DNA from: an uncultured Patescibacteria group bacterium
GTDB taxonomy: Bacteria; Patescibacteriota; Microgenomatia; UBA1400; PJMF01
Length of the DNA stretch: 64,000 nucleotides
Direction of reading: 5' to 3'
Assembly: GCA_905478415.1 (NCBI GenBank)
Contig: CAJQIG010000001.1
Coordinates: forward strand, 8,818-72,817
Below, in pieces: positions 12,040 through 36,256 of the stretch. The notes under the pieces are model-generated. The model had not been told where the DNA came from. It worked only from the letters and a program-made list of their open reading frames with translations, and did no database searches. The position numbers and the translations under genes were made by a program. How positions within the stretch are numbered: the stretch's first letter is position 1; each line of letters opens with the position of its first letter.

Positions 12040-12048
12040 ATAAAAGAT

Positions 12049-14844: not shown

Positions 14845-14857
14845 TAAGGGAAAAAGA

Positions 14858-19041: not shown

Positions 19042-19066
19042 ATATTAAGTAATAAACAATCTATAT

Positions 19067-20578: not shown

Positions 20579-20608
20579 TAAAAATGAAATGTAAGGTAAA
20601 ATTAAATT

Positions 20609-22858
20609 ATGGCTACATTATTTAAAGAGGTTAACTATAACTTATCAACACTGATTCAACAAATTGACTTAGGAATTATCGGATTACCCGACATTCAACG
20701 TCCTTTTGTATGGAAAGATACTAAAGTTAGAGATTTATTTGACTCTATGTATCGAGGGTATCCGGTTGGGTACTTCTTATTTTGGGCAAATGGTTATCAG
20801 GAAAATACTAAAACAATCGGTGATCAAAATAAACAAAAAGCAGCCCAGCTTCTTATTGTCGATGGACAGCAACGATTAACCTCACTTTTTGCTGTAATGA
20901 AGAGTAAAAGCATTATTCGTGAAAATTATGAAACAGAAAACATCGTTATTTCATTCAAGCCTCTTGAGGAGAAGTTTGAAATACCTGATGCTGCCACAAA
21001 AAGAAGTCCTGAATACATTCAAAATATATCTGAACTTTGGAGTCCAGATATTAACATCTTTTCATTCACTCAGAATTTTATCGAGAAACTACAACAAACT
21101 CGAGAACTATCTGGTCAGGAAATAAATCAAATTCAAGAATCAATCAGCAGACTAAAAAATTTGGAGCATTATCCATTTTCAGTTCTTGAACTATCAGCTG
21201 CTATTGATGAAGAACAAGTTGCTGATGTTTTTGTGAGAATTAATAGTCAAGGTAAAAAACTTAACACAACAGATTTTATCTTGACATTAATGTCTGTTTT
21301 CTGGGAGGAAGGAAGAAAAGATTTAGAAAACTTCTGTGCAAGCGCACGGCAACCAAACACAAGCGAAGCATCTGCATTCAATTACTTGATTACTCCAGAT
21401 CCAGAGCAAATGTTGAGAGTGAGCGTCGGTTTTGGTTTTAGAAGAGCAAGAATGAAGTATGTCTATAGTATCTTGAGGGGTAAAGATTTAGAAACTGAGG
21501 AATTTTCTGAAGAACGAAGAGATCAACAGTTTGAAAAATTAAAAAATGCTCAAGCAAAAGTCTTAAGTCTAACTAACTGGCATGAGTTCCTCAAAGCATT
21601 GCAAAGAGCAGGTTATGTACGCTCTGACTACATTAGTTCACAAGTAAATGTTCTTTATGTATACGCAATGTATTTAATTGGTAAGTATGATTTTGAGGTT
21701 CCACTGTTTGAACTGAGAGAAATAATTGCTAGATGGTTTTATATGACCTCACTTACAGGACGATATACTGGATCACCAGAATCTCAGATGGAGGCGGACT
21801 TGGCAAACTTAAGAGATATTTCTACAGCTGAAGAATTTGTTTCACTTCTGGATAAAATAATTGCAACTCAATTTACGAGTGACTTCTGGCAGATAAATCT
21901 TCCAAATGATTTAGCTACTAGTTCTTCAAGAAGTCCCTCTCTTTTTGCTTACTATGCTGCGCTAAATGTGTTGGATGCAAAGGGTTTGTTTTCTCAACTT
22001 AAGGTTTCAGATTTGCTTCATGCCGGATTGAAGTCAAATAAATCAGCACTAGAGAAGCATCATCTTTTCCCAAAAAATTACTTGGTGAACATAGGTATTG
22101 AAGATCAACGTGTTCGTAATCAAATTGCTAACTTTGCCTTAGTTGAATGGAGTGACAATATTAAGATTTCAGATAGTTCCCCGCAAGAGTATATGGAGAT
22201 CATGAAAGAACGATTCGATCATGATGAACTTCGTGAAATGTATTATTGGCACGCATTACCCGATGACTGGCAAAACATGAATTATGATGAATTTCTGGAG
22301 GTGAGAAGGCAAAAAATAGCAGATGTTATCCAAACTGGATATAACAAACTATCTAGCATAGATCCAGAGGTAGATGCTGAAATTACGTCAATAGATCAAT
22401 TAATTCAAGGTGGTGAGTCAGAAAATATCGAGTTTAAATCCACTATGCGCGTTAATCTCTATACAAATGCAAAAGATCAAAAAATTGAAATGGCTTTTCT
22501 AAAAACAATTGCAGCTTTTCTGAATACTAATGGAGGAGTACTTGTTGTCGGAGTAAATGATGATGGAGAGTCATTAGGCTTGGATCCTGATGGTTTTGAA
22601 AACAGTGATAAATTTTATCTACACGCTGTGAATCTTATTAGAGACAAAATGGGTTCAGAGAATGCTTTGTATATTCATCCTCAGTTTGAAGATTATGTGG
22701 GAAAGCAGATTTTCGTAGTTAAATGCAAACCTGCACTAAAACCTGTATATGTAAAAGACCAAGGTCAAGAAAAATTCTATGCAAGAACAGGAAATAGTAC
22801 TACTGAATTGAATGGTCGAGAGTTAGAGGACTATATTAATCTGAGGTTTAGAAGGTAG
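20609..22858 (+). CDS. GmrSD-type modification-dependent (type IV) restriction protein: DUF262 + DUF1524 with a C-terminal AlbA_2/Schlafen-like domain
   Basis: DUF262 DGQQRLTS motif at about residue 90; C-terminal HNH-like DUF1524 region (HHLFPKNYL...N...EW); terminal about 150 aa (SENIEFKSTMRVNLYT...GGVLVVGVNDDG) resemble the AlbA_2 putative DNA-binding domain. Confidence 0.7.
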   Translation: MATLFKEVNYNLSTLIQQIDLGIIGLPDIQRPFVWKDTKVRDLFDSMYRGYPVGYFLFWANGYQENTKTIGDQNKQKAAQLLIVDGQQRLTSLFAVMKSKSIIRENYETENIVISFKPLEEKFEIPDAATKRSPEYIQNISELWSPDINIFSFTQNFIEKLQQTRELSGQEINQIQESISRLKNLEHYPFSVLELSAAIDEEQVADVFVRINSQGKKLNTTDFILTLMSVFWEEGRKDLENFCASARQPNTSEASAFNYLITPDPEQMLRVSVGFGFRRARMKYVYSILRGKDLETEEFSEERRDQQFEKLKNAQAKVLSLTNWHEFLKALQRAGYVRSDYISSQVNVLYVYAMYLIGKYDFEVPLFELREIIARWFYMTSLTGRYTGSPESQMEADLANLRDISTAEEFVSLLDKIIATQFTSDFWQINLPNDLATSSSRSPSLFAYYAALNVLDAKGLFSQLKVSDLLHAGLKSNKSALEKHHLFPKNYLVNIGIEDQRVRNQIANFALVEWSDNIKISDSSPQEYMEIMKERFDHDELREMYYWHALPDDWQNMNYDEFLEVRRQKIADVIQTGYNKLSSIDPEVDAEITSIDQLIQGGESENIEFKSTMRVNLYTNAKDQKIEMAFLKTIAAFLNTNGGVLVVGVNDDGESLGLDPDGFENSDKFYLHAVNLIRDKMGSENALYIHPQFEDYVGKQIFVVKCKPALKPVYVKDQGQEKFYARTGNSTTELNGRELEDYINLRFRR

Positions 22859-22861
22859 TGT

Positions 22862-23233
22862 ATGAAAATTGATGAAGCTGTAATTGCGTTTAAACTAAAT
22901 AAAACCTACAAACCCACAATGACTCCGATGCAACTCTATGATGCAACAAGGCATTCATGGAAGGTGGGAGAAAGAAGAAACTCAGCAGAGTATGCTTTTG
23001 CTGTATTTCAGGGAGAAGTTAAGGAAGTATACAAAATTGCTATTTGGCTTCCTCAAAACTCAACATTAAATACGAAAGATAAGGAAAACATTGAGGATAA
23101 AACTATAAATACTGATAGATGGGAATTTGTTGGTACAATTGCACCTGAGAAAATCAGATATAAATATATTGGAAAAGATATATCTGATTTTTTCAAAAGT
23201 AAACAAAATCCAGTTGCTTATATCAACTGCTAA
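22862..23233 (+). CDS. hypothetical 123-aa protein tightly linked (3-nt gap) to the GmrSD-like gene
   Basis: ORF only; no recognisable motif. Confidence 0.35.
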   Translation: MKIDEAVIAFKLNKTYKPTMTPMQLYDATRHSWKVGERRNSAEYAFAVFQGEVKEVYKIAIWLPQNSTLNTKDKENIEDKTINTDRWEFVGTIAPEKIRYKYIGKDISDFFKSKQNPVAYINC

Positions 23234-23685
23234 AACACTTTAAATTCAATAGCAATGCCAGCATTCTCACAAACTTTTGCTATAAAACTATCTCGATCTG
23301 CTCTTCTCGATTGTTTATGGGTGAAATCATTAAGCTCGATTAACTGAACTGTCTCAAGTGTATTTTTATCAACGAGTACAAAATCAATAGATTTTTTGTT
23401 GATTTTATTCCAATGCGTATAGAAGTTTTTTTGATCCGTTGTTTTTACGAGTTTATCCAGCTTAACCTGTGGGAAGATGTAATAATTTTGTGCATACTGC
23501 TGTTCTAGCTGACGAAAGTATTTTTGTTCGGAGGGAGTCATGATTGAATGAGTTTTTTCATACGGTAAGTACGAGTCCTTATTAGCTTTTAAAGCACGTT
23601 TTAAAAGTCTGAAAAGAACAGCTATAGTAAAAAGCGCTAGTAAATATGGAAACAGTGAAATAAGTGGTTGAAACAAATCTGACAT
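23230..23685 (-). CDS. DUF2726-like (NERD/PD-(D/E)xK-like) domain protein with N-terminal membrane anchor
   Basis: N-terminal TM (LISLFPYLLALFTIAVLF), then SIDFVLVD ... LIELND ... R.DRD pattern recalled as typical of DUF2726. Confidence 0.45.
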   Translation of the reverse strand: MSDLFQPLISLFPYLLALFTIAVLFRLLKRALKANKDSYLPYEKTHSIMTPSEQKYFRQLEQQYAQNYYIFPQVKLDKLVKTTDQKNFYTHWNKINKKSIDFVLVDKNTLETVQLIELNDFTHKQSRRADRDSFIAKVCENAGIAIEFKVF

Positions 23686-24541: not shown

Positions 24542-25483
24542 CTATTCGTCATGCTGGTGCGAATACCATTTGACGAGTTTATTTAATCCTTGTTCTAAAG
24601 ATATTGTCGGTTTCCAATTTAGCATATTCATGCTTTTTGTACTGCATACACTGTAACGAAAATCTTGGCCGAGTCTATCTGGTATATACTCGACTGCTGT
24701 TTCTAGCTTTTTGCTCATGATTTTGGCAACAATACTCACCACTTCGAGGTTCGTATGTTCAGCTTCCATCCCTAAAGCAAAAGATTCGCCATGAAATGAC
24801 GAATGTAAAATTTTCATTACACCTTGAACGGCATCACTAACATGTAGCCATGTTCTGATTTGATTTCCATCACCATGAAGACCCATGCGTTCGTTCGCCA
24901 TGAATCGTACAATGGTTTTAGGGATCAGACGCTCTGGGTACATCCAAGGGCCGTAAAGATTTGTAAAGTGAACGATGTTGTAATTTAGGTTGAAGGTATT
25001 TCCAAATGATCGTACCAAGTGGTCGCCTGCTGCTTTAGTTGCAGCATATGGATTTCTTGGCAGGTATGGAGAATCTTCTGTGAATGATCCTTCAAGGATA
25101 TCACCCCAAACTTCATCGGTTGATGCATGTATTAATCTGCAACGAAAACCATCTTGTTTGATAGCCTCAAGTAAGCTTAACACACCCAGAACGTTTGTAT
25201 CAACGAATGGGCGTGCATTGCTAATTGAGTTATCAACAAAGGCTTGTGCCGCAAGGTTAATAACAACATCAGATTGACGAACTAGCCCGCGCATCAAATT
25301 GGTATCACAGATATCACCTTTGATAAAGGATGATTTGTTACCCAATTTTTCGATCACAGGTAAATTTGCCGTGTAACAAAGGTTGTCAACAATGATGATT
25401 TTTGTTACAGCTTCGTCTTTTTCAAGTAGCTCAAGCAGGTTTGATCCCACAAAGCCAAGTCCACCAGTCAATAGAATTCTCAT
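24542..25483 (-). CDS. NAD-dependent epimerase/dehydratase (extended SDR; dTDP-glucose 4,6-dehydratase-like)
   Basis: Rossmann GGLGFVGSNL, catalytic YAATK (YxxxK), 313 aa. Confidence 0.75.
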   Translation of the reverse strand: MRILLTGGLGFVGSNLLELLEKDEAVTKIIIVDNLCYTANLPVIEKLGNKSSFIKGDICDTNLMRGLVRQSDVVINLAAQAFVDNSISNARPFVDTNVLGVLSLLEAIKQDGFRCRLIHASTDEVWGDILEGSFTEDSPYLPRNPYAATKAAGDHLVRSFGNTFNLNYNIVHFTNLYGPWMYPERLIPKTIVRFMANERMGLHGDGNQIRTWLHVSDAVQGVMKILHSSFHGESFALGMEAEHTNLEVVSIVAKIMSKKLETAVEYIPDRLGQDFRYSVCSTKSMNMLNWKPTISLEQGLNKLVKWYSHQHDE

Positions 25484-25494
25484 TCCTGCACCTT

Positions 25495-26760
25495 TTAGAT
25501 TTGGGCTAAAGCTTCATATTCTTCTTCTGAAAGAATAGAGACTTTACTGGTTACGGTATCGAACATAAAGCCAAAACCATTTTCCTTACGGAGACGGTAT
25601 TGACCTTTGTTGGCCGTAAAGATTGGTTTGAAAGTTTCCAGTGTTTGTCCATAATCAAACAAAGGAAGATGGCCAATTACAATTTCATCTAGTTCCTCAT
25701 ATTCTCGCTCTGAAATAGCAACTGCCACATCTTGATTTGATGCTCCAACTTCTGCAATATCTTGCTGAATCAGCTCGATATTATCACCAATATGGAATTT
25801 TCTGGTTACTTCTTCTTCTGTTGTGAAACGGTGTTGCAACCAGTTGGTGACTTTAGGGCCATATCCGTCAAAGATTTGAGTCAATGGAGTTTCATTAATG
25901 TTGCCCAATGTTTCATCAAATCGCCACGTGCGACCCCAAGTGCAGATATTTGTGCGCACATTTCCATCAGGACGCACAATGGTTAACCACCCTTTGAAGC
26001 GCTCAACAAATTTATGCATGTTCAACGTTCGACTGGTCATTTCATTAACCAACGTATCATTGAAAACAAGCAAAAATTGTGAGGGATCTATGTGTGCATT
26101 CATACTATCTGCTTCCATTTTGATTTTGGTAAATTGATCCTGTGTCAATCCATCAAAACCATTCATGGCATGGCCGGTAAAGCACACTGGGGTTAGGTGA
26201 TGTTGACGTACGCCAATTTTCATTAACAGCTCTGTTAATTCTTGCCACCCAATATGGGAATTTTGGTCAAGAACGCTGATCACTGTAATGTTATCAACAA
26301 CATCTTTCAGTCGTTGTAGGTTTGTAATTGTGCGTTGGTACATACCCTTACCACGGTTACGGTCATGAGAATCTTCTAGACCATCTAAACTGACAATAAT
26401 GCGTTTGAGATTTTTAGTTCTCTCCAGAATTGCCAGAGTTCGATCAGTTACGGTTGTGGCATTGGTAATAATTTGCAGACTGGTAAAATCAAGGTCTTGC
26501 GAAGCATCTGCGAGTGCTTCTAAGCCTTGCCACATAAGTGGTTCCCCACCTGTTACATTAATATCAAAGCAACGCATTGCTTCTGCCGTTGCCAAGATTT
26601 CTGGAACTTTGTCTGCTGAAACTGCTGGGCCTTTATAGAAGGGGCCAGCAGAGGCATGACAGTACCAACAAGATAAATTGCATTTTCTTGTTGTATCCAG
26701 ATTAATATGAATGGGGGTTGAGGGTTGATCTAACGTAAATATTCTGCCATTTGTGTTCAT
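25495..26760 (-). CDS. radical SAM domain protein
   Basis: CxxxCxxC cluster CNLSCWYC near the N-terminus, GGEP motif; a C-terminal about 200 aa extension with few Cys, so not a typical SPASM domain. Confidence 0.7.
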   Translation of the reverse strand: MNTNGRIFTLDQPSTPIHINLDTTRKCNLSCWYCHASAGPFYKGPAVSADKVPEILATAEAMRCFDINVTGGEPLMWQGLEALADASQDLDFTSLQIITNATTVTDRTLAILERTKNLKRIIVSLDGLEDSHDRNRGKGMYQRTITNLQRLKDVVDNITVISVLDQNSHIGWQELTELLMKIGVRQHHLTPVCFTGHAMNGFDGLTQDQFTKIKMEADSMNAHIDPSQFLLVFNDTLVNEMTSRTLNMHKFVERFKGWLTIVRPDGNVRTNICTWGRTWRFDETLGNINETPLTQIFDGYGPKVTNWLQHRFTTEEEVTRKFHIGDNIELIQQDIAEVGASNQDVAVAISEREYEELDEIVIGHLPLFDYGQTLETFKPIFTANKGQYRLRKENGFGFMFDTVTSKVSILSEEEYEALAQI

Positions 26761-26795
26761 TTTTTATTTCACCTTTTGTTTGAACTTTGAAAAGA

Positions 26796-27746
26796 TCAGG
26801 ATAGTTCTTCTGTCCAGAAAGTAATCATGCTTTGGACAAGGTCAGAAAGATGCAAAGCAGGTTCCCAACCAAGCATACGGAGTTTTGAGTTGTCGCCACC
26901 AGATACAGCATCAGGGCCATATCGAGTAATTGACGGATCAACAACAATGTTTGGAGCAACTCCAGTTTGTTTTGCAAGTTCATCAATAAATGCTTCCAGT
27001 GTTAGGTCTTCGCCATAACAAACGTTATACGCTTCACCTGTAACACCATTTTGCAGTATAGCGAAACTTGCATCGGCCCAGTTAACAGCTTGTTGTACAT
27101 CTCGTGCGTAATGCAAACTGGGAATTTGGATATCAATAGCATTCACACCATCCAATTTTGCCTGTACCATTGTTTTTGCAATGGTTGGATGAATACCACT
27201 TACTCGGCCGGGACCATTATGGTTATAAACAACGGCCTCTACAATATCTAAGCCAAATTGTTTCTGATAAGCATGTCCCAAAATACGGTCGTACATTTTA
27301 GATGCTGAATACGCATCTTTAGAACGCACTGGGGCATTTTCATCTTTTTTATTGGCAGGTCCACCATAGAGTGCGGCTGAAGTGGTGATTAAAACTCGTG
27401 CATCACTTGCATACAGACGCACAGCCTCTAAAATGGACAGTGTACATAATCCATTGTTGCGCAAAGTCAATGCGGGTGTTTTGTGTTCACCCTGATAAAC
27501 TTTCGCGGCAAGATGGATAACAAACTTGGGCTGGAATTCTTGTAAGATTGTATCAATTTCGCTATCGAGTGCTGTGAGGTCACAAACACGTCCAGTGAAA
27601 CCTGAATATGTTTCTTCCAAAGCAAGCAACTTTTCAGCATTACGGCCAATGCCTACAACTTGATAGCCTTCGGCAATTGCTTTTTCAATATGATACTTTC
27701 CACTAAAACCAGTTACACCCGTGATTAAAACAGTTGTTTGTGTCAT
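26796..27746 (-). CDS. NAD-dependent epimerase/dehydratase (extended SDR)
   Basis: Rossmann GVTGFSGKY, catalytic YSASK, 316 aa. Confidence 0.75.
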   Translation of the reverse strand: MTQTTVLITGVTGFSGKYHIEKAIAEGYQVVGIGRNAEKLLALEETYSGFTGRVCDLTALDSEIDTILQEFQPKFVIHLAAKVYQGEHKTPALTLRNNGLCTLSILEAVRLYASDARVLITTSAALYGGPANKKDENAPVRSKDAYSASKMYDRILGHAYQKQFGLDIVEAVVYNHNGPGRVSGIHPTIAKTMVQAKLDGVNAIDIQIPSLHYARDVQQAVNWADASFAILQNGVTGEAYNVCYGEDLTLEAFIDELAKQTGVAPNIVVDPSITRYGPDAVSGGDNSKLRMLGWEPALHLSDLVQSMITFWTEELS

Positions 27747-27924
27747 TTTCTATTTCACCTTTTGTTTGAGTTTGTTTGAAATTATCTTTATCTTCAATTT
27801 TTAACGAACAATATCTGTGTGAACAGACTAACAGCCGATAATTATAACACAAAAGGACTAATTTTACTCAAGTAAAATAAAAAATATGTGATAATTTTGA
27901 GAAAATATGAAAAATTATTATGAC

Positions 27925-28410
27925 TTATTTATTGTTTTTGATTAGATCAACAACATTCCAACATGATTTATGAATATCATTGATGTCTAGTTTATCCAAG
28001 TCAAAAAAGTTGATTTCAACTGATTCAGTATCTATGATTTTCAGATTTCCACCAACTTTTTTTACAAGGTAAAAAACTAAAATTCCATGAGCATCTTCAG
28101 CACCTGTAGTAAAAAAACTATCCTCAACTGATAGCAATTTATCCAGTTCAACATCTAAGCCTGTTTCTTCTTTGAATTCTCTAATAAGAGCTACAGGAAT
28201 TGTTTCATCAATTTCAACACCGCCACCAGGTAAGTCAAATTTATCTATTGAAGGATGGCGCTTAAATAAAATCTTGTTATCTTCTATTAAAACCCCATAG
28301 GCACTTGCTCTAAACTTAAAGTTTGCTAAGTTTCTTTCATGTTTATTTCCTGCAAAATCGTATGCAGTGATAGTTTTGTTTTTTGGTGTGTTAAATAGTG
28401 TATCTTCCAT
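27925..28410 (-). CDS. NUDIX hydrolase
   Basis: Nudix box GGGVEIDETIPVALIREFKEETGL. Confidence 0.75.
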   Translation of the reverse strand: MEDTLFNTPKNKTITAYDFAGNKHERNLANFKFRASAYGVLIEDNKILFKRHPSIDKFDLPGGGVEIDETIPVALIREFKEETGLDVELDKLLSVEDSFFTTGAEDAHGILVFYLVKKVGGNLKIIDTESVEINFFDLDKLDINDIHKSCWNVVDLIKNNK

Positions 28411-28481
28411 ATCAATTCCTAGCTGAACATTACATTATAAGATTCTACACTTCACTGGGTTTTTAATAAAGAATAGAAATT

Positions 28482-28600
28482 AGGGGTCTTACCCCTCATT
28501 TTGCAAGGGCTATAGCAAGTCTCGACTGAAAGTCGGGACCCTTGCAAAACTCACCCCGCTTTTAAAGCTCCATGTAATGGAAGCAGGCTAACCTGCTTCC
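28482..28600 (+). promoter_or_regulatory. hairpin-rich leader upstream of the ArdC-like gene (candidate ssDNA promoter, oriT-associated structure or small RNA)
   Basis: Four stable stem-loops: aggggt/acccct; 11-bp stem ttttgcaaggg/cccttgcaaaa enclosing a 9-bp stem gtctcgact-gaa-agtcgggac; ccat-gta-atgg; 9-bp stem ggaagcagg-ctaa-cctgcttcc. Confidence 0.4.
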
Positions 28601-28626
28601 AATTACAAAATTTTAAAGGGGGAAAA

Positions 28627-29412
28627 ATGAAACTATCACCAAAAGCACAGGCAAGCATTAACAAGGTAATAGAGAAATTTCAAACTGGAGACTTATCAGC
28701 TGTGACAAGAATAGCTCGTATTCAAGTTGCTAGTGATGCTCCAGTTAATAAGTGGAGCTTATCAAATAAAGTGCTAGCATTTTTACAATCTGATGAGCTA
28801 GATTGCCGGGGTTATAAACAGTGGCAGAAAGAAGGTAGAACGGTCAAAAAAGGCAGTAAGGCAGTTTATATACTCAGACCTAAGCTCGCTAAGATCGAGC
28901 AGGAAAACGAAGGGGAAACAAAAAATATTTGTGTTGGTTTTGCTCCTATTCCAGTATTTGCAGCTTCATGTACTGAGGGTGACGAAGTGTTACCAACCTA
29001 CGAGCCAGTAGAATATCCGCCATTACTAGACGTGGCTAAAAAATTTGGTATAGCTGTTGAGTATGCACCTATTAGCCCAGACAAACTTGGTGATTGTCAA
29101 ACTGATGGTAGCAAAATCAGACTTGGTACACACGATGCAGGAGTATTTTTTCATGAATTAGCCCATGCGATACACGCGCGAATAGATGGAGAGCTAAAGC
29201 AAGGACAAAACAAGACACAAGAAACAGTAGCCGAGTTTACATCTGCAGTATTGATGGACTTGTACGGCATGGGAGATTCTAGCGGGAAAGCTTGGAGCTA
29301 TATTAGCCACTATTCAGATGATCCACTCATTGCCATAACTAAGGCGATGGGAACAGTTGAAAAAGTGCTGGCGGTATTACTCGCTGATGAGGTGCCAAGT
29401 GTTGGCAGTTAA
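28627..29412 (+). CDS. ArdC-like antirestriction/ssDNA-binding protein with C-terminal HExxH zincin-like metallopeptidase motif
   Basis: N-terminal ArdC_N-like pattern (KW...N...YKQWQKEGRTVKKGSKAVYI vs the canonical F.QW...G..V+KGEK); C-terminal FHELAHAIH (HExxH). Confidence 0.55.
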   Translation: MKLSPKAQASINKVIEKFQTGDLSAVTRIARIQVASDAPVNKWSLSNKVLAFLQSDELDCRGYKQWQKEGRTVKKGSKAVYILRPKLAKIEQENEGETKNICVGFAPIPVFAASCTEGDEVLPTYEPVEYPPLLDVAKKFGIAVEYAPISPDKLGDCQTDGSKIRLGTHDAGVFFHELAHAIHARIDGELKQGQNKTQETVAEFTSAVLMDLYGMGDSSGKAWSYISHYSDDPLIAITKAMGTVEKVLAVLLADEVPSVGS

Positions 29413-30144
29413 GCCAGCTTCTTGTATCTCTGACTTCAGACTTAGGAAAAATTGTAAGTCTGAAGTCTCCTCCTCCAAAACTTGAGCAATATGTTTGGTG
29501 AGGAAGTTGTAGATATTTTGATTTGGAGAGATAAATAAAAGTGATGGATTTTCATGTAACGTCCTATTTTGCCAGGTTCCTTCGTCAAAGTACTCAATGT
29601 ATTGAGAGATTTTCTTTCGTAGCATAAAGCGTGGGGTACCTTCGTCGATGATTTCTAAAAAATAACGCTTTGTTAAGTCTTTGTCTTTCAGGGAAATATA
29701 CGCATCAGGTCGGTTATATGGCAGGTAGTAGTGTACTGCTAAATCGGTTTTGGTATAAAAATGAAGATCGTGTTTGTTTTTAAGGGATTGCTCTTTGAGC
29801 AATAAATAAACATCGGCTAGAAAGAGACTGTGATTGATTAGTTTTTGAGAAGCATTTTTATCTCGGTAGGCTCTACGCAATATCTTTTCGTTTGTATTTT
29901 CTTGCTTAAGAAGAATCTTTCTTGATTTAGTAGCTAGGTAGTATATCGCTGGTCTGGTATTCTCTTTGAGTCTAGTTGAGTAGATTCTACCGAGGATATT
30001 TTTTTCTGTGTGGTCTTTAAGCCATGAGTTTATTCGTTTGGGATCTTTGTGATTAAGTAATGTTTGAATTTGATGTCGATTAAGGAAACGGAAGCGATAT
30101 ATGAGAGTGAGGATTTCGAGTTGTTTAGGAGTTATGGTATCCAT
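29377..30144 (-). CDS. replication-relaxation family protein (winged-helix relaxation protein of conjugative elements)
   Basis: N-terminus ITPKQLEILTLIYRFRFLNRHQIQTLL matches the LTPRQLDILRLLYRFRFLT..HL signature of the replication-relaxation family. Confidence 0.55.
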   Translation of the reverse strand: MDTITPKQLEILTLIYRFRFLNRHQIQTLLNHKDPKRINSWLKDHTEKNILGRIYSTRLKENTRPAIYYLATKSRKILLKQENTNEKILRRAYRDKNASQKLINHSLFLADVYLLLKEQSLKNKHDLHFYTKTDLAVHYYLPYNRPDAYISLKDKDLTKRYFLEIIDEGTPRFMLRKKISQYIEYFDEGTWQNRTLHENPSLLFISPNQNIYNFLTKHIAQVLEEETSDLQFFLSLKSEIQEAGLTANTWHLISE

Positions 30145-30348
30145 AGTGTTGTTTACTATGGGCAGGCTATTTTCTGTGTTGTGAGGTATTGTATCATTCC
30201 CTCCCCTTATTATATAAGGGAATAGAGGTAAAGATTATTTTAGTGTTTATCTGGGAAAGTGCGTGAATTTTGTCCTAGCTGGCTGGGGCAGTTTTTTTAA
30301 GATAAATATTGATTATTTCAGGCTATAATAATGCTATAGGAAAAATTC

Positions 30349-30987
30349 ATGTCAAAGAAAAAAACCGATATTCAAAAGTTTAGTGACAAAGCAATTCAAT
30401 TTGTTGCTGACGTAATTATTTTTGGTGCAACTATTTACTATAAAGTTCTACGTTTCTTTACACACAAAGATTATTTTAATAGAAAGCATCTAGAAGTTAT
30501 TTTTGAAGGTCTAACTATTAAAGTTAAATGGTTTAATCATGATGAATATGTATCACATAAGCTTGATAAGCTTTCGGTAGTCAAACAAGAATCCGAATCA
30601 ACTGATGAATTTATTGAGTATTTGCTTAAAGAGTGCAAAAGTTGCAACTATGTCATCTTTAATGGAAAAGATGAAAAGAAGTTTGTTCAGTTTTGGCTTG
30701 GGGATGGCAGACTGATGTCTGATTATCCAATTCTGAAAAAGAATGGTTTAAAACGATACAGATATCAAATGCTAGGTGTGTTAAATGAGTTAGATATACA
30801 TGCTGTGAAACCTGGAGAGAAAAAGCCAAAAAGAGTTCCATATTATCTACATAAGCAGGCAACTGATTTTGAAACGTACGAAATATATTTTCAGGATTAT
30901 CCCAAAGAGGCTGTAAAGTTTGTCAAAATGATGCTTGAAGAAGTTTATAAAGAAAAATTTGATGATTTGAATTATACTTTGGGATAA
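30349..30987 (+). CDS. hypothetical protein
   Basis: ORF only. Confidence 0.3.
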   Translation: MSKKKTDIQKFSDKAIQFVADVIIFGATIYYKVLRFFTHKDYFNRKHLEVIFEGLTIKVKWFNHDEYVSHKLDKLSVVKQESESTDEFIEYLLKECKSCNYVIFNGKDEKKFVQFWLGDGRLMSDYPILKKNGLKRYRYQMLGVLNELDIHAVKPGEKKPKRVPYYLHKQATDFETYEIYFQDYPKEAVKFVKMMLEEVYKEKFDDLNYTLG

Positions 30988-30991
30988 CGAT

Positions 30992-31657
30992 ATGAATATA
31001 ACAATAAAAGAAGGCGTTGATGGCGCTAGAAATGCTAAGGGTATTGCAGTAATAATTGACGTTTTGAGAGCAGCAACTGTTGCATCATATTTGCTTGATA
31101 AAGGTGTGACTTCAATTCATCCTGTTGCAACCCCAGAAGAGGCTTTTGACTTTAAGATGAAGGATGAAGAAGTGTTGCTTGTTGGTGAAAATAAGGGAAT
31201 TAAGATTGATGGTTTTGATATCGGTAATTCTCCATCAGTTATAAAAACACTTAATAATTTGGATGGAAAAAAGGTTGTTCATAGAAGTTCAACTGGCACA
31301 CAAGGCTTAGTTAATTCTACAAATGCAAATCAAATAATATTTGGGTCATTCGTTTCTGCTCAAGCAATTTTGGATTTTTTAAAAGCCAGCCAATCTGAAG
31401 ATATTACATTCGTCCCAATGTATGCTTTAGAAGATCAACTTTTTGCTGAGTACATGGTAAGTAAATTAAAAGGTGAGACACATTCTTCTCTCGAGGAAGT
31501 GAAAGCAAAGCTTGAACAGCATGAATGGATATTGAATAGCTTTCTTAATCCTCAAAATGATAATTTTCCCGAGGATGACTTTCACTTGGCACTAGAGGTT
31601 GATACATTCAATTTCTTTCCAATAATCAAAGATGGAAAAATTGTTAAAAGCAACTAA
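30992..31657 (+). CDS. 2-phosphosulfolactate phosphatase (ComB) family protein
   Basis: VIIDVLRAATVAS and VGENKG.KIDGFDIGNSP motifs of the ComB family. Confidence 0.55.
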   Translation: MNITIKEGVDGARNAKGIAVIIDVLRAATVASYLLDKGVTSIHPVATPEEAFDFKMKDEEVLLVGENKGIKIDGFDIGNSPSVIKTLNNLDGKKVVHRSSTGTQGLVNSTNANQIIFGSFVSAQAILDFLKASQSEDITFVPMYALEDQLFAEYMVSKLKGETHSSLEEVKAKLEQHEWILNSFLNPQNDNFPEDDFHLALEVDTFNFFPIIKDGKIVKSN

Positions 31658-34287
31658 GGCAAAGTCGAAAAAGCCTGTGTTTTAGATTTGGGTTTACTTA
31701 CCTTCTTATATCTACGAAAAACTTGTGTTGTTGCTGACGGCTCGTATTTCATGGCAAAGTGCTTTCTAGAATTCTCAATCACCTCATTCACTCTTCCTTT
31801 GTTTTCCCTAATTTCAACAGGCATAGTAATCCCAGAAAAAGGCTCTTCAGGGTTTAAAGCACCTAGTCTCATAAAGAATCTGTATGACGGTAATCCAGCA
31901 ATATCACCTTGTTCAACATACGGTCTGAATTGAGGCAAAATAAGTGTTTCATCCTCAGGATTAGCTGTTCTAAAGCAAATAACGGTTCCAGTATTTGCCA
32001 GGGTTACGTTGACCAGTGATTTGTCTTCAAGCTGTGAAGTAGTCTGATGGGCTAAGATTGCCCCAAGCTTGTATTTACGAGCCTCTGAGAGTATCTGAGC
32101 AAAAGCAGGGGTGGCAAAGTTTTGAAATTCATCAACATACAAATAGAAGTCTTTTCTATCTTTCTCAGCCATTCGTGCACGCCTCAATGAAGCCAATTGG
32201 AGCTTTGCCATAACCACCACGCCAAACACTTTTGAGTTATCTTCTCCAAGTTTTCCTTTGGATAAATTACAAAGTAAGATCTTGCCTGCATTCATGATTT
32301 CTTCAAAATTAATAGTAGATTTTTCTTGCTCTAGGATTCGTTTGGCAGTTGGTGAAAACAAAAAGCGTCCAATTTTGTTAGTAATTGGCGATATCATTTT
32401 TACTTTCTGATAATCACCAGCTTTGGCAAACTCATACTTCCAAAAGTCTTTGAGGTTTTCATCTGTTAGTTGTTTAACTACTGATTTTCTAAACTTGGTG
32501 TTTATCAGTAACTTATAGACTGTAAATAGTGTTGCTCCTGGAACAGTAAAAGCTGTGTGAATAGTGTTTCTGAGTATATACTCCATTCTTGGCCCAGAAT
32601 ATTTTTCAGTATAGATTTTGTGAAATAGAGAAATAATACTTTCGGCAATGTACTCTTTTTCTCTAGTGGCATCTTCTTCACTCAAACCATCAGAAAGTTC
32701 AAGCAAGTTAATGCCCATTGGGTATTCAATATCATCAGGGTTAAAGTACACCACATCTTCTAATCGTTCTTCTGGAATTACATGTAAGATTTGTTCAATC
32801 AAATCTCCATGAGGATCAACGACTGCCAATCCTTTGCCATTTTGAATATCGGAGTTGATCATGCTCAAAAGCATGGTGGATTTACCCGTACCAGTAGCTC
32901 CCAGGATATACATATGTCTTCTACGCTCGTTTTCAGTTAAACCAATCAAAGTTCTAGAGTTACCATAGGTATTTTGTGCAAAGACCACATCAAGTTTATT
33001 GCCTTTTTTGAGAGACAGCGGTGCAGGTAATTCTTTACTAAACTGTTTCTGCATATCTTCAGTTTTTGTCGTCTTGGTGAATGGGAAGTGATATAAATCT
33101 CCAAGTTCAGATGAAGATAAAATAGTGCTGTTAAAAGGGAGTGATAGCCTATGCCTGAACAAAAAGCTCTTGAAAGCATTAAGCTGTTTAATTGGAAGTT
33201 TAAGGCTTTGAGTAAGATGTTGATATTGAGTACCACTCATTGATTTCAGTGTTGAAACAAAACCTTTTGATTTTTTATTAGCCAAATATTCATTAGATGA
33301 TTGAGACAACACTCTAATTGAGGTTTTATATAGCGGTTGATCAATTTTCTTCTTTACCAGTTTTTCAATTTCACTCTGGTAAGCATTGCTTGCTTTCTTG
33401 CCTTTTAGAATTCTAGGCAGTGGCAGCAGTGGCCCATCTCTACCATCTGTGGCTAGGAACACCAGTAAGCCAAGTGGTAGAAGCAAGATTTGTAGTGCGT
33501 AAGAAATAGTTAGATACAACCAAGCACCTGAGTGTGCATGGGCAATTTCAGCAGTTAAGTCTTGTTTGCTTTTGATGAGTTTTTGCAGTCGTTTAACTTC
33601 TGGCAATTTAGATTTAGAAACAGGACTAATAACAACTTGATATGCAAGTAGCTCACTATCCTTAAGTTTGGTCATTGCTCCAGTTAAGTACGCAATTGGA
33701 TCGTTTTTATCTAGGCTTTCATGAGCTTTGAGGGGAAAGGCAAAGTGTTTGGCAAGTTTTAATTGAGTAGTAAAACTATTTCTTTCCTGTAGATATTCAC
33801 TGGTTTTGTTGATCTGAATACCTGGGAGATATGATAGTAAGCTGTTTTTAATCAGACCTGATAGTGATTGAGGTGCTCGAATTACATAGCGAATACCATC
33901 AGCTTTAGTGGAAACAATTTCTAAACTAACGCTTTTTGTAACTCTAAATATTCTCTCAACAAAAGACTTTTGATTGGTAATGCTGTGAAAGAGATTAAAG
34001 AGTTGTTCTGTTGAGTATGGGTTAAGTTCAGTTTTCTTGAGTGGCTTAATTTCTAAATACACATGTTTTGCAGTTTGTTGTTTAAACAGCAAAATCAGTC
34101 TGATGACCTGAAAAACCAGAAAGAGTGAAACAAATAAGAGGAAAAAAGCTAAAAGGGAAAAATAAAGAACAGACCAGTTGATTGATGGAATTATTGTGGC
34201 AGGAAAATATGAGAGTATTTGGTTTAAATCAATAGCCATGCCCTTCTTTTCTCTGGGCAGACAATGTTGTGTTGGAGTATACCCCAA
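31654..34287 (-). CDS. virD4: type IV coupling protein (VirD4/TraD/TraG family) with N-terminal TM segments
   Basis: Walker A YILGATGTGKSTML, Walker B YLYVDEFQNF, N-terminal hydrophobic helices, 877 aa. Confidence 0.8.
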   Translation of the reverse strand: MGYTPTQHCLPREKKGMAIDLNQILSYFPATIIPSINWSVLYFSLLAFFLLFVSLFLVFQVIRLILLFKQQTAKHVYLEIKPLKKTELNPYSTEQLFNLFHSITNQKSFVERIFRVTKSVSLEIVSTKADGIRYVIRAPQSLSGLIKNSLLSYLPGIQINKTSEYLQERNSFTTQLKLAKHFAFPLKAHESLDKNDPIAYLTGAMTKLKDSELLAYQVVISPVSKSKLPEVKRLQKLIKSKQDLTAEIAHAHSGAWLYLTISYALQILLLPLGLLVFLATDGRDGPLLPLPRILKGKKASNAYQSEIEKLVKKKIDQPLYKTSIRVLSQSSNEYLANKKSKGFVSTLKSMSGTQYQHLTQSLKLPIKQLNAFKSFLFRHRLSLPFNSTILSSSELGDLYHFPFTKTTKTEDMQKQFSKELPAPLSLKKGNKLDVVFAQNTYGNSRTLIGLTENERRRHMYILGATGTGKSTMLLSMINSDIQNGKGLAVVDPHGDLIEQILHVIPEERLEDVVYFNPDDIEYPMGINLLELSDGLSEEDATREKEYIAESIISLFHKIYTEKYSGPRMEYILRNTIHTAFTVPGATLFTVYKLLINTKFRKSVVKQLTDENLKDFWKYEFAKAGDYQKVKMISPITNKIGRFLFSPTAKRILEQEKSTINFEEIMNAGKILLCNLSKGKLGEDNSKVFGVVVMAKLQLASLRRARMAEKDRKDFYLYVDEFQNFATPAFAQILSEARKYKLGAILAHQTTSQLEDKSLVNVTLANTGTVICFRTANPEDETLILPQFRPYVEQGDIAGLPSYRFFMRLGALNPEEPFSGITMPVEIRENKGRVNEVIENSRKHFAMKYEPSATTQVFRRYKKVSKPKSKTQAFSTLP

Positions 34288-34517
34288 CCTCTGGTTTTTG
34301 GCAATAAATTACTGTTGACATGGTGCTTAAAAATAGATAAACTATCACTATATTGATAATTTGTAAAGCATGGTATGACAGATAAAAAACAAGGTGACGA
34401 TCAAAAAAAGCAGGAAGACATCTTTACAAAAAGACTGGCGGCAATCTTGGTTAAACAGATTCAATCAGATATTCAAAAAGGTAAAACACCTCGATCTGAG
34501 CAGGTGAAAGGTCAGAC

Positions 34518-36245
34518 ATGACCAAAACACTTGCAAGTCAAAATGCTGTTGCTGCAATTAGAATTTCTTCAGTAAAACAAGGCTTACAAGGTGACTCTCC
34601 TGAGGATCAAAAACAACAAATAGAGCGTTTTGCTCTGGCTCGTGGGATTACCATCAAAAAATTCTTCATTTTTATGGAATCAGCTTCCAAAGAACAGCAA
34701 CCTGTTCAAGAAGCAATTGATTACTGTGCTAATTCAAACAACGACATTCAACTATTCATTATCAAATCTATTGATCGGTTTACTCGTGGAGGTTCATATC
34801 TCTACGACCATCTCAAACGCCAGCTAGTATCCAATAATGTACGGTTAATTGATATTTATGGCATCATTAGCAGCCAAGAAGTAAATACACTTGAGCATTT
34901 AGATGTTGAATATGACTGGAGTGTCTATAGTCCTACTAAGAAAGCGGAGATTTTAGAGGCTGAGAGGGCTAAAGATGAGATGCGAGACATTATGACTCGT
35001 ATGATTGGGGCAGAAATTCGCTATGTTCGCATGGGTTATCGAGTTCGCAGGGCTCCATATGGATATAAGAATAAAAAAGTTGATACTGAGCATGGGAAGC
35101 GTGTCATTTTGGTTCCATATGAGGAAGAGGCTCAGTGGATCAGAAAAATGTATGATCTTAGGCTCACTACTGCGTTGAATGATACTGAAATAGTTGAAAA
35201 ACTTAATGAGCTTGGATTTAAAACACGAACATTTAATCGAAGAGATCCTAACAACAAAACAAAAATCATTGGTAAGCGAGGCGGTAATCCACTTAATCTT
35301 AAGCAGTTATGGAGATTTATTAGAAATCCAATTTACGCTGGCATTAATGTTGAGAAATGGACACAAAGCAAACCGATTAAGGGTCAGTTTGAAGGCTTAA
35401 TCAGTGTTGCAGAGTTCAACAAAGCTAATAGGGGCAAAGTTGTAATTGTTGAGAAAAACGGTCAAATATCCATTGAAAAAGAAAAGCCTCCAACTCACTT
35501 AGCAAATAAGCAGGTACTTAATCCAAAGTTTCCTTTTAAAAAACATGTTCACTGTCCAAAATGCAATAAACCTTTATATGGTAGTGCTTCAAAAGGCAAG
35601 CTCGGTAAGTATTACCCTGCCTATCATTGTCATGCACGAGGCCACTATTTTAGAGTACCTAGTAAAGAGTTTATGGAAACTATTGAGACATTTGTGAAAG
35701 ATATTGAAGTTTCTCCAGAGTATATTGATAACCTAAAAAAGGAAGTTGTAAGACTTTGGAATAAGCAGCAGGAAACTATAGTTGAGGATAACACCCGAGT
35801 TGATAAGAAGATCGAGGATTTACGCTCTCAGGCACGCTCAATTGCTGAAAAGATTCGCTATCTTAATTCGGAAGTATCAATTAGATATATGGAAAAAGAT
35901 TTAATTGATATTGAGAATGAGATTCAAAAATTAGAAGATGCAAAAGAAAATCCTGTGGCAAAAGAAGACGTAAATATGGAAGTAGTTATGGAATACATTG
36001 GTTTTTATTTGGAACACCTAGAAGAATTATTGCTATATAGGGCTAAACCACTAAAAAGAGCTGAGTACTTTAGCCTACTTTTTGAGCAACCTCCAACCTA
36101 TGATGAATTGGCTTTTGGAACACCAAAATTAGTCCCATATGTCAAGAAAAAAGGGGGTAATAATACCCCCTCCTTCCCAATTGGTGACCCCACAGAGAAT
36201 CGAACTCTGCTCTACAGGATGAAAACCTGTTATCCTAACCGATAG
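34518..36245 (+). CDS. large serine recombinase (integrase of the island); its 3' end reads into tRNA-Glu
   Basis: N-terminal resolvase catalytic domain (AAIRISSVKQ active-site Ser region), recombinase domain, zinc-ribbon CPKCN...YHCH, coiled-coil C-terminal region. The last about 64 nt overlap the antisense of tRNA-Glu. Confidence 0.75.
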   Translation: MTKTLASQNAVAAIRISSVKQGLQGDSPEDQKQQIERFALARGITIKKFFIFMESASKEQQPVQEAIDYCANSNNDIQLFIIKSIDRFTRGGSYLYDHLKRQLVSNNVRLIDIYGIISSQEVNTLEHLDVEYDWSVYSPTKKAEILEAERAKDEMRDIMTRMIGAEIRYVRMGYRVRRAPYGYKNKKVDTEHGKRVILVPYEEEAQWIRKMYDLRLTTALNDTEIVEKLNELGFKTRTFNRRDPNNKTKIIGKRGGNPLNLKQLWRFIRNPIYAGINVEKWTQSKPIKGQFEGLISVAEFNKANRGKVVIVEKNGQISIEKEKPPTHLANKQVLNPKFPFKKHVHCPKCNKPLYGSASKGKLGKYYPAYHCHARGHYFRVPSKEFMETIETFVKDIEVSPEYIDNLKKEVVRLWNKQQETIVEDNTRVDKKIEDLRSQARSIAEKIRYLNSEVSIRYMEKDLIDIENEIQKLEDAKENPVAKEDVNMEVVMEYIGFYLEHLEELLLYRAKPLKRAEYFSLLFEQPPTYDELAFGTPKLVPYVKKKGGNNTPSFPIGDPTENRTLLYRMKTCYPNR

Positions 36246-36256
36246 ACGATGGGGCC
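36182..36256 (-). tRNA. tRNA-Glu (anticodon TTC), CCA encoded
   Basis: Reverse complement reads GGCCCCATCGTCTATCGGTTAGGATAACAGGTTTTCATCCTGTAGAGCAGAGTTCGATTCTCTGTGGGGTCACCA, a cloverleaf with 7-bp acceptor stem, TTC anticodon and TTCGATT T-loop. Confidence 0.8.

Follow-up and report, generated by a model that had tools for sequence, protein, structure and literature searches.

The folded element and the gene behind it

The analysis concerns a window of 64,000 nucleotides (the whole stretch of DNA that was analysed; contig CAJQIG010000001.1 of GenBank assembly GCA_905478415.1, from an uncultured Patescibacteria group bacterium) and, within it, a folded non-coding element that lies directly 5' of a gene for an ArdC-like protein. 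The element is located in a 216-bp gap between a NUDIX gene (27925-28410, minus strand) and the 261-codon ArdC-like gene (28627-29412, plus strand). Its parts, together referred to as the motif, are a small hairpin (H1), a compound hairpin (H2), a single-stranded box, a third hairpin (H3) and an A/T-rich box (Table 1). In the initial annotation of this DNA, a hairpin-rich leader of 120 nt had been described; the leader is real, but its length is about 145 nt (28482-28626), and the end position given there for the whole finding, 29412, is the end of the ArdC-like gene and not of the leader. The proposed hairpins, including a nested structure of 11 bp plus 9 bp, were all recovered at the places given for them. 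The hairpins are GC-rich and the surrounding genome is AT-rich.

The stability of the fold was compared with that of shuffled sequences on both strands. The minimum free energy (MFE) of the element as RNA is -64.4 kcal/mol versus -37.7 +/- 3.9 kcal/mol in dinucleotide shuffles (z -6.8), and the corresponding z values for DNA folding are -8.0 on the plus strand and -7.2 on the minus strand; native fold energy was reached by 0 of 200 shuffles. The longest stem in the element is about 15 bp and carries a bulge. H1 forms the left edge of all conservation, and in two loci (L014 and L016) its stem is replaced by GGCGG...CCGCC with pairing preserved. Two types of H2 interior occur, a short one (the type of the window) and a long one; the loop of H3 has between 3 and 20 nt in different family members, and the whole element between 135 and 155 nt. 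A weaker long-range pairing (28556-28566 with 28612-28622) covers the Shine-Dalgarno (SD) sequence GGGGG. Sequestration of the SD, seen in the window as CCC.GCUUUUAAAGC with UUUUAAAGGGGG, is not conserved across the family. A two-state switch, in which the 3' arm of H3 would pair with a downstream copy of the 5' arm, looks striking in some types of the motif; it was rejected after a permutation of cognate versus non-cognate arms proved not significant (median rank 0.45).

Table 1. Positions of the features discussed, numbered from the first nucleotide of the window
Feature	Position	Strand	Details
Whole conserved element (motif)	28481..28617	+	H1, H2, single-stranded box, H3, A/T box; 137 nt; covariance model R1 150.1 bits, E 1.5e-34
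H1	28482..28496	+	6-bp stem AGGGGU/ACCCCU (28482-28487 with 28491-28496); CUU loop invariant
H2	28499..28549	+	11-bp outer stem UUUUGCAAGGG/CCCUUGCAAAA (28499-28509 with 28539-28549) around variable interior
H2 interior in the window	28519-28527 with 28531-28539	+	GCUAUAGC plus 9-bp inner stem at the positions given; one U.G
Unpaired box	28551..28560	+	UCACCCYGCU, here TCACCCCGCT, then U-rich run; invariant in 27 genome copies and the metagenome alignment
H3	28573..28607	+	28573-28587 with 28592-28607; 9-bp core GGAAGCAGG/CCUGCUUCC (28579-28587 with 28592-28600) plus 6-bp lower stem, one bulge
A/T-rich box	28608..28626	+	AAAATTTTAAA; family consensus AAAAATTATAAA, also given as AAAAAUUAUAAA; then Shine-Dalgarno GGGGG at 28618-28622
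ArdC-like gene	28627..29412	+	261 aa; ArdcN-like N-terminal part and HExxH metalloprotease part (Pfam, fold match)
Replication-relaxation gene (PF13814)	29377..30144	-	E 1.5e-14; convergent with ArdC-like gene
Conserved non-coding region upstream of Replic_Relax	30145..30348	.	alignment of 8 loci
VirD4/TraG-like coupling protein	31654..34287	-	877 aa; Pfam
Large serine recombinase	34518..36245	+	3' end overlaps tRNA-Glu; right end of element
tRNA-Glu	36182..36256	-	tRNA scan
Type I restriction-modification, HsdM	9217-10794
Type I restriction-modification, HsdS	10795-12039
Type I restriction-modification, HsdR	12049-14844
Gabija-like pair, OLD-type AAA_15+TOPRIM	14834-17116
Gabija-like pair, UvrD helicase	17098-19041
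DUF2779/Cas4-like gene	19067-20578
GmrSD	20609-22858
DUF2726	23230-23685

The product of the downstream gene had been annotated as ArdC-like, and this description holds. The Pfam match to ArdcN is marginal (23.9 bits versus a cut-off of 22.6), and sequence searches of the protein against the PDB gave no match; the fold search alone succeeded. When an AlphaFold model (pLDDT 76.8) was compared with the PDB by Foldseek, the top match was ArdC of plasmid R388 (6I89, E 1.7e-8, 232 columns), with the SPRTN protease in second place. The HExxH motif and about 60 other columns are invariant among 29 homologues, and those of the 352 close relatives that bear a name are labelled Patescibacteria or ArdC. 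On the strength of the model, the label "ArdC-like" is justified, and the predicted protein shows the two-domain ArdC fold, with an N-terminal single-stranded DNA (ssDNA)-binding domain and a C-terminal HExxH metalloprotease domain. Six other loci possess a second, unrelated structured leader 5' of ArdC (L013 3800-4000, L020 3800-4000, L021 1630-1830, L029, L015 and L018), in which AACUCACUG and CAGUGAGUU pair at long range and a CUCCUG...CAGGAG hairpin with G.U pairs covers the SD; this second leader looks RNA-like.

Conservation, covariation and distribution

Two collections of loci were used: a genome set of 79 loci that encode relatives of the ArdC-like protein, and a metagenome set of at least 120 loci obtained by a pattern scan, supplemented by one IMG/VR contig. 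All metagenome counts refer to the matches listed. A covariance model (R1) built from ten copies gave 30 matches in the genome loci, 74 in the first hundred metagenome loci and then 15 further strong ones. The strong copies number at least about 119, every one of them in Patescibacteria DNA; roughly two dozen additional weak or shortened variants were found among the R1 matches listed. No motif was present in 42 or more ArdC loci from outside the Candidate Phyla Radiation (CPR): within the 79-locus set, the leader is missing from loci of Planctomycetes, Chloroflexi, Firmicutes, Deltaproteobacteria and archaea and is kept 5' of the gene in Patescibacteria loci. Both an R1 scan and a repeat search found a single copy in the window, and the motif is not a dispersed repeat of this genome.

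As had been anticipated for homologous islands, the hairpins are conserved with compensatory changes. In the alignment of the listed metagenome matches, 96.9% of the cells are paired, and two-sided changes were found at 19 of the 30 pairs (223 cells); none of 500 shuffles matched this result, and sliding the partner by one column lowered the pairing to 51-63%. The independent genome set gave the same picture (97.6% paired, compensatory changes at 21 of 30 pairs, 0 of 500 shuffles). All nine pairs of the H3 core covary, as do all four conserved pairs of the inner H2 stem and the closing pair of H1; the pairs GGGG/CCCC of H1 and CAAGGG/CCCUUG of H2 are invariant. The structure is real and under selection.

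Wobble pairs are rare. In the genome set there is no one-sided (wobble) change at any pair, and G.U occupies 15 of 1737 cells in the listed metagenome matches, with 11 of these 15 at the loop-closing pair of H1. This closing pair is UA in 36, CG in 19, UG in 11 and CA in 2 of the 68 listed metagenome sequences. Once composition is corrected for, stability is the same on both strands (RNA z -5.0 versus -4.7; DNA z -6.2 versus -6.0). A choice of strand from the raw MFE, which favours the minus strand, was discarded because the effect vanishes under composition control, and one based on counts of G.U against A.C was likewise given up, the counts being mixed and too few.

The base of H1 (28479-28482) is exactly where homology to all other loci begins, including the close relative L001, a 96%-identical locus whose element is 93% identical in DNA. 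The DNA 5' of H1 is unrelated in every locus pair, L001 included; alignment of this upstream DNA revealed nothing at a fixed distance, and the gap to the next gene, which is usually divergent and unrelated, measures 27-120 nt, the smallest gaps being of 27-46 nt. Conservation of the element goes together with that of the gene 3' of it, and not with that of the genes on its 5' side. A terminator of the NUDIX gene, which had been named as an explanation that would dispose of the proposed control element, is ruled out since that gene lies divergently on the minus strand and turns its start codon towards the element. H1 followed by CAUUUU or CUUUU is only weakly terminator-like.

Known elements did not account for the motif. 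At the gathering threshold, an Rfam scan of the whole window returned three tRNAs only, and a permissive scan of 28300-28800 gave as best hit an unrelated small RNA (23.9 bits versus a cut-off of 64). The motif is absent from Rfam 15, no description of it was found in the literature searched, and the site bears no tRNA or tmRNA likeness. No match was obtained when it was compared by blastn (word size 11) with 72,556 plasmids and 50,697 phages, and in the same plasmid and phage sets blastn gave no sequence similarity to Frpo/ssi (single-strand initiation) elements.

The genes behind the motif are always on its strand, with the start codon 140-180 nt after H1 and 10-45 nt after the A/T box. They encode ArdC-like proteins, DUF2958 proteins of about 104 aa (the majority among the metagenome matches listed), ArdA, DUF6876, an MT-A70 methyltransferase, a Fic/HTH protein, an HTH_17 protein and several proteins without a Pfam match. 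Leading regions of plasmids and anti-defence islands typically contain such genes (PMC11541004). Where ArdC has another leader, the motif precedes DUF2958 instead; subtypes of the motif follow the gene on their 3' side and not the one on their 5' side, and in all eight multi-copy loci the copies are co-oriented, forming motif-ORF-motif-ORF arrays (ORF, open reading frame).

Variants outside the main family were also seen. Shortened forms of about 80-95 nt (L112, L161, L179, L181, L126 and L173) keep H1 and H2, have the UCACCC box and H3 replaced by ACGUAAGGGGAC, and precede proteins without a Pfam match. The IMG/VR contig (L080, 7638-9696), which is viral and of higher GC content, holds a weak copy (38 bits) 5' of an MT-A70 methyltransferase gene and is possibly from a double-stranded DNA phage of CPR bacteria that uses the same control element.

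The surrounding mobile element

The motif stands at one end of a larger unit. The conserved order comprises the motif with an ArdC or DUF2958 gene reading away from it, Replic_Relax on the opposite strand, small variable genes, the gene of a VirD4-like coupling protein on the opposite strand, a large serine recombinase gene on the strand of the motif and a tRNA gene. With this architecture, the interval 28479-36256 of the window is a tRNA-targeting integrative element of about 7.8 kb, in a family of about 7-8 kb. The recombinase occupies one end of it and the motif the other. The ORF of the recombinase reads 64 nt into the opposite-strand tRNA-Glu gene before its stop codon; in 8 of 8 loci the recombinase gene comes next and reads in the direction of the motif, and in all seven related loci with enough flanking DNA it ends at or inside a complete tRNA gene (Glu four times, Gln, Ser and Lys). 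The related loci with this architecture are L088, L100, L111, L113, L151, L158 and L185, and several genomes carry two to four copies. At the left end of the element in the window, neither direct repeats nor a tRNA fragment was found. An H1-like hairpin at the right end (36151-36170) was set aside as it is not conserved in other loci. Since no mating-pore genes are present in it, the element would, as judged from its gene content, be mobilizable at most.

The adjacent replication-relaxation gene, to which attention had been drawn at the outset, is indeed present, in a mobile element that also encodes a coupling protein. Where they occur together with the motif, the Replic_Relax gene (68 of 69 cases) and that of the coupling protein (47 of 47) are located 3' of it and read from the other strand. 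The imperfect inverted repeat that had been placed at 30202..30220 exists as well: it is CCCTTAT-TAT-ATAAGGG at 30204-30220, invariant in 8 related loci and followed by AATAGAGGTAA. Further along the same conserved intergenic region, a hairpin at 30270-30291 (TGTCCTAG/CTGGGGCA) contains two G.T wobbles on the plus strand, which are Watson-Crick pairs in L011, and a T-run; it is terminator-like on the plus strand. The region 30145-30348 may be an origin of transfer (oriT) and/or the source of a countertranscript antisense to the Replic_Relax leader. All motif-bearing genes point towards it, which would give the geometry of a leading region if the nick lies there.

In a survey of Patescibacteria, 5,713 VirD4-like genes were reported, mostly far from virB4 and with almost no known relaxases (PMC12102498). 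The present element family plausibly accounts for many of these orphan VirD4-like genes, and Replic_Relax may be the unrecognised relaxase of the elements.

Just to the left of the element, the window contains a defence island (9217-23685; Table 1). Between a conserved GNAT gene and the left end of the element (24542-28410), it carries genes for an epimerase, a radical SAM protein, a second epimerase and the NUDIX protein. The same interval holds one unrelated gene in the close relative L001 (3189-3852), and the distant locus L010 (877-3740) has the same radical SAM/NUDIX set beside the motif. An accretion hotspot is what this left junction resembles.

Interpretation and comparison with known systems

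The motif is very probably a shared on-switch of establishment (anti-defence) genes that has not yet been catalogued, because it always precedes such genes. It is best explained as an autonomous control module, specific to one strand, that moves together with the gene on its right and marks the establishment genes of the tRNA-integrating mobilizable elements of about 7-8 kb in Patescibacteria. With respect to the initial annotation, the idea of a leading-type control element that serves the anti-restriction genes of a mobile element is retained, and likeness to Frpo is not. The ssDNA form had been expected to mimic the duplex geometry of a -35/-10 promoter; the stems are too short for this, and in 87 copies no pair of such boxes with a spacing of 16-18 was found within one duplex or at a fixed position. 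No sigma-70-like -35/-10 promoter occurs at a recurrent position upstream of or inside the 87 distinct copies, although the promoter consensus of CPR bacteria may differ, and the window has no promoter-like site on the plus strand in 28411-28626. In the absence of a positioned -35/-10 and with unrelated DNA upstream, the module either carries its own start signal or is silent as a duplex.

The favoured mechanism, to which a probability of about 40% is given, is early gene expression from a single-strand initiation signal of the hairpin type that is not Frpo-like. The element would enter a new cell as ssDNA, and the template strand of ArdC (the minus strand of the window) would fold into H1, H2 and H3. 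These hairpins would remain free of single-stranded DNA-binding protein and recruit a host enzyme, either RNA polymerase or primase, so that RNA synthesis could start towards ArdC and the anti-restriction protein be produced ahead of the complementary strand. As integrated duplex DNA, the module would lack a promoter and the gene would be silent. If the nick lies upstream of Replic_Relax, the transferred strand is the template of the motif genes.

Structured RNAs normally carry several per cent of G.U pairs and fold better on their own strand. The near-pure Watson-Crick covariation and the equal stability of both strands are thus the pattern of DNA hairpins or of a constraint on two strands, and unusual for RNA. 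The interiors of long-type H2 hairpins contain one or two covarying 7-mers, namely GCTTCGC (51), GTTTCAC (19) and ACTTCGT (10), which read GCGAAGC, GTGAAAC and ACGAAGT on the template strand. Of 85 distinct H2 interiors, 54 contain such 7-mers (two of them in 25 cases), and TTC triplets with two closing Watson-Crick pairs amount to 62% versus a background of 9.5%. Mini-hairpins of the d(GCGAAGC) or GNA type are "extraordinarily stable" as DNA, the RNA version being far less so, and they occur at the primase origins of G4 and St-1, in ssiA of RSF1010 and in the early promoters of N4 (PMC13037366). A precedent is found in F and ColIb-P9, where copies of Frpo/ssi precede ssb, psiB and ardA (PMC11541004, PMC6294495).

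Several observations weigh against a signal that acts on the single template strand. With no -35/-10 mimic in the element, the mode of recognition would have to be new. The closing pair of H1 takes U.G (11) over C.A (2) in sense-strand terms, which favours folding of the plus strand, and the short-type 7-mer GCUUCGU forms G.U on the plus strand and A.C on the minus strand. The copy in the window has GCTATAGC in place of a GNA mini-hairpin, and the weak copy on the viral contig adjoins genes for an N-acetylmuramoyl-L-alanine amidase and an HNH protein. From the literature, it must be added that CPR genomes are mostly without recognised relaxases (PMC12102498), that in pLS20 the analogous EGeRS1 repeats are carried by the transferred DNA on its non-template strand (PMC8708921), and that ssDNA and RNA structures are hard to separate by sequence analysis alone (Weinberg et al., PMC5737381).

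A substantial, though minority, chance is given to a structured 5' leader of the mRNA, folded as plus-strand RNA and serving as a cis-acting stabiliser, an insulator against read-through, a translation enhancer or a factor-binding site. A covarying structure right 5' of start codons is by default read in this way, and the edge of conservation at the base of H1 is what would be expected of a 5'-terminal protective stem-loop. The strand bias of the H1 closing pair (UA, CG and UG far above CA on the plus strand), the U.G in the inner H2 stem of the window, the cUUCGg loop in L017 and L093 and the A/U-rich box directly 5' of the SD all agree with RNA, as does the downstream copy of the 5' arm of H3, which can pair with the 3' arm by means of G.U (for example in L002, L007 and L017). 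A precedent is provided by three inverted repeats in the 5' untranslated region (UTR) of p576 ardC, which raise expression (PMC6294495). The difficulty lies in the source of the transcript: there is no conserved upstream promoter, and the divergent gene can be as close as 27-46 nt. Transcription might come from a promoter at the other element end, across the junction of the excised circle only, and such a junction-spanning transcript is conceivable given that the motif occupies the terminus opposite the recombinase. A leader acting as RNA is further opposed by the near absence of G.U from the 30 covarying pairs, the lack of strand asymmetry in stability, the non-conserved SD sequestration, the non-significant permutation of the alternative pairing (median rank 0.45) and the covarying 2-bp GNA/UNC mini-stems, which would be marginal as RNA (PMC13037366).

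The remaining explanations are less probable. It is unlikely that the motif is a double-stranded promoter-operator with the A/T box as -10 and H3 plus extra half-sites as operators for a repressor encoded by the element, subject to zygotic induction after transfer in the manner of Reg576 of p576, a precedent described in PMC6294495. The Watson-Crick-only arms of H3 and a third, direct arm copy downstream in many loci do resemble half-sites that co-evolve with a repressor; the A/T box always has a TAnnn(T/A)-like hexamer, and L003, which has no SD and an ATG 7 nt after TATAAA, fits a leaderless start. An H3 loop of 3-20 nt is, however, incompatible with a fixed half-site spacing, no -35 is present, and in copies of the L141 type the SD abuts the box, so that a -10 there would leave the SD outside the mRNA. 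H1 and the repeat-less covarying inner stems of H2 would be left unexplained, and no repressor-like gene was seen in the element of the window, the only one screened, in which 4 of 6 genes have other Pfam annotations and a 212-aa ORF has none. A DNA-folded recombination or cassette-boundary site, either attC-like or part of the attP/attL of the serine recombinase, has a very small chance of being correct. Homology between loci stops exactly at H1, single-copy elements have the motif at the terminus opposite the recombinase, and the motif-ORF-motif-ORF arrays of 8 loci recall the DUF1874/attC case (PMC5737381). Against this stand the high sequence conservation, unlike that of attC, the internal copies away from the termini (L024, L122), an H1 that is invariant although the tRNA targets differ (Glu, Gln, Ser, Lys), the lack of a matching half-site at the right end, and the constant distance to the start codon and the SD, which ties the motif to expression; an integron attC site proper was ruled out by the long invariant boxes and by the large serine recombinase at the opposite element end. 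The initial annotation had offered a structured small RNA as its own alternative, and the motif has no promoter or terminator of its own to match it. In the form of a divergent, antisense small RNA on the minus strand, running from TATAAT (the reverse complement of the A/T box) to H1, the idea is extremely improbable. The reverse complement of AATTATAAA does contain TATAAT, and the window has a promoter-like site on the minus strand (28639-28610) as well as a terminator-like H1 on that strand; yet promoter-like matches on the minus strand occur in a minority of copies (13 of 87), many copies have ATTAATTTTC and not TTATAAA, no U-run follows H1 on the minus strand in most loci, and the closing-pair bias of H1 opposes this strand.

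For the favoured single-strand initiation signal, a wider claim is possible but distinctly doubtful: it would constitute a new class of hairpin-based promoter or priming signals, unrelated to Frpo and read by host RNA polymerase or primase on incoming ssDNA, and would flag a hitherto unrecognised, very widespread family of tRNA-integrating mobilizable elements of about 7-8 kb in which Replic_Relax is the "missing" relaxase for orphan VirD4-like proteins. If such a class of signals exists, the motif could be used to find new anti-defence genes in CPR bacteria. How early establishment genes are controlled is understood in a few plasmids only (F and ColIb-P9, with Frpo, and p576, with Reg576), and the 137-nt motif is a small, tractable object, rich in sequence and covariation data, on which control by ssDNA and by RNA can be compared. 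Conjugation is debated in the host phylum, where Patescibacteria carry thousands of orphan type IV coupling protein genes (PMC12102498). In CPR genomes, the motif can be used to recognise a family of integrative mobilizable elements, and it offers a guilt-by-association handle for anti-defence genes, proteins without a Pfam match being already among those behind it.

Among known systems, Frpo/ssi of F and ColIb-P9 is alike in that structured non-coding modules are repeated 5' of co-oriented anti-restriction and establishment genes, point at the presumed nick and show no ordinary duplex promoter. Frpo differs in being one imperfect hairpin of about 300 nt, the stem of which rebuilds TTGACA-17-TATAAT (PMC11541004), whereas the present element, from another phylum, lacks a -35/-10 pair with a spacing of 16-18 and folds into three short hairpins, of 6, 11+4-9 and 9-15 bp. 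In function, Frpo/ssi and, foremost, EGeRS1 are the nearest counterparts of the motif. EGeRS1 of the pLS20 family is found upstream of ardC and four other establishment operons, has no constitutive promoter and blocks read-through in its native orientation (Val-Calvo et al. 2021, PMC8708921). Like the motif, it is conserved, structured, richer in GC than its surroundings and placed 5' of the ribosome-binding site of ardC and other establishment operons (PMC8708921); it differs in its length of about 600 nt, its occurrence in Bacillus plasmids and the lack of sequence similarity to the present element of 135-155 nt with its near-invariant boxes, and for pLS20 the strand that is transferred has been identified as the non-template one. 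The 5' UTR of p576 ardC also has three inverted repeats between promoter region and start codon that raise expression (Val-Calvo et al. 2018, PMC6294495), in a sequence unrelated to the motif and behind a mapped sigma-A promoter with upstream Reg576 operators, none of which were seen for the present element.

The origins of G4 and St-1, ssiA of RSF1010 and the N4 promoters are likewise clusters of short, stable hairpins of about 100-140 nt, and many members of the present family share with them GCGAAGC-type GNA mini-hairpins on the candidate template strand. They differ in having DnaG, RepB' or the virion RNA polymerase of N4 as recognising enzymes and in not being tied to start codons; no dedicated enzyme of this kind is encoded in the present element. 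Integron attC sites and the DUF1874 motif (Weinberg et al. 2017, PMC5737381) are comparable as folded structures that recur between co-oriented cassettes and at the edge of which homology breaks; attC sites, which lie 3' of cassettes, are poorly conserved in sequence, whereas the present motif is strongly conserved, is fixed before the SD and is paired with a serine recombinase at the far end in place of an integron integrase. With no -35/-10 stem of the kind that defines Frpo, and with a length and a sequence other than those of EGeRS1, the motif is, on sequence grounds, a separate, much smaller and CPR-specific family.

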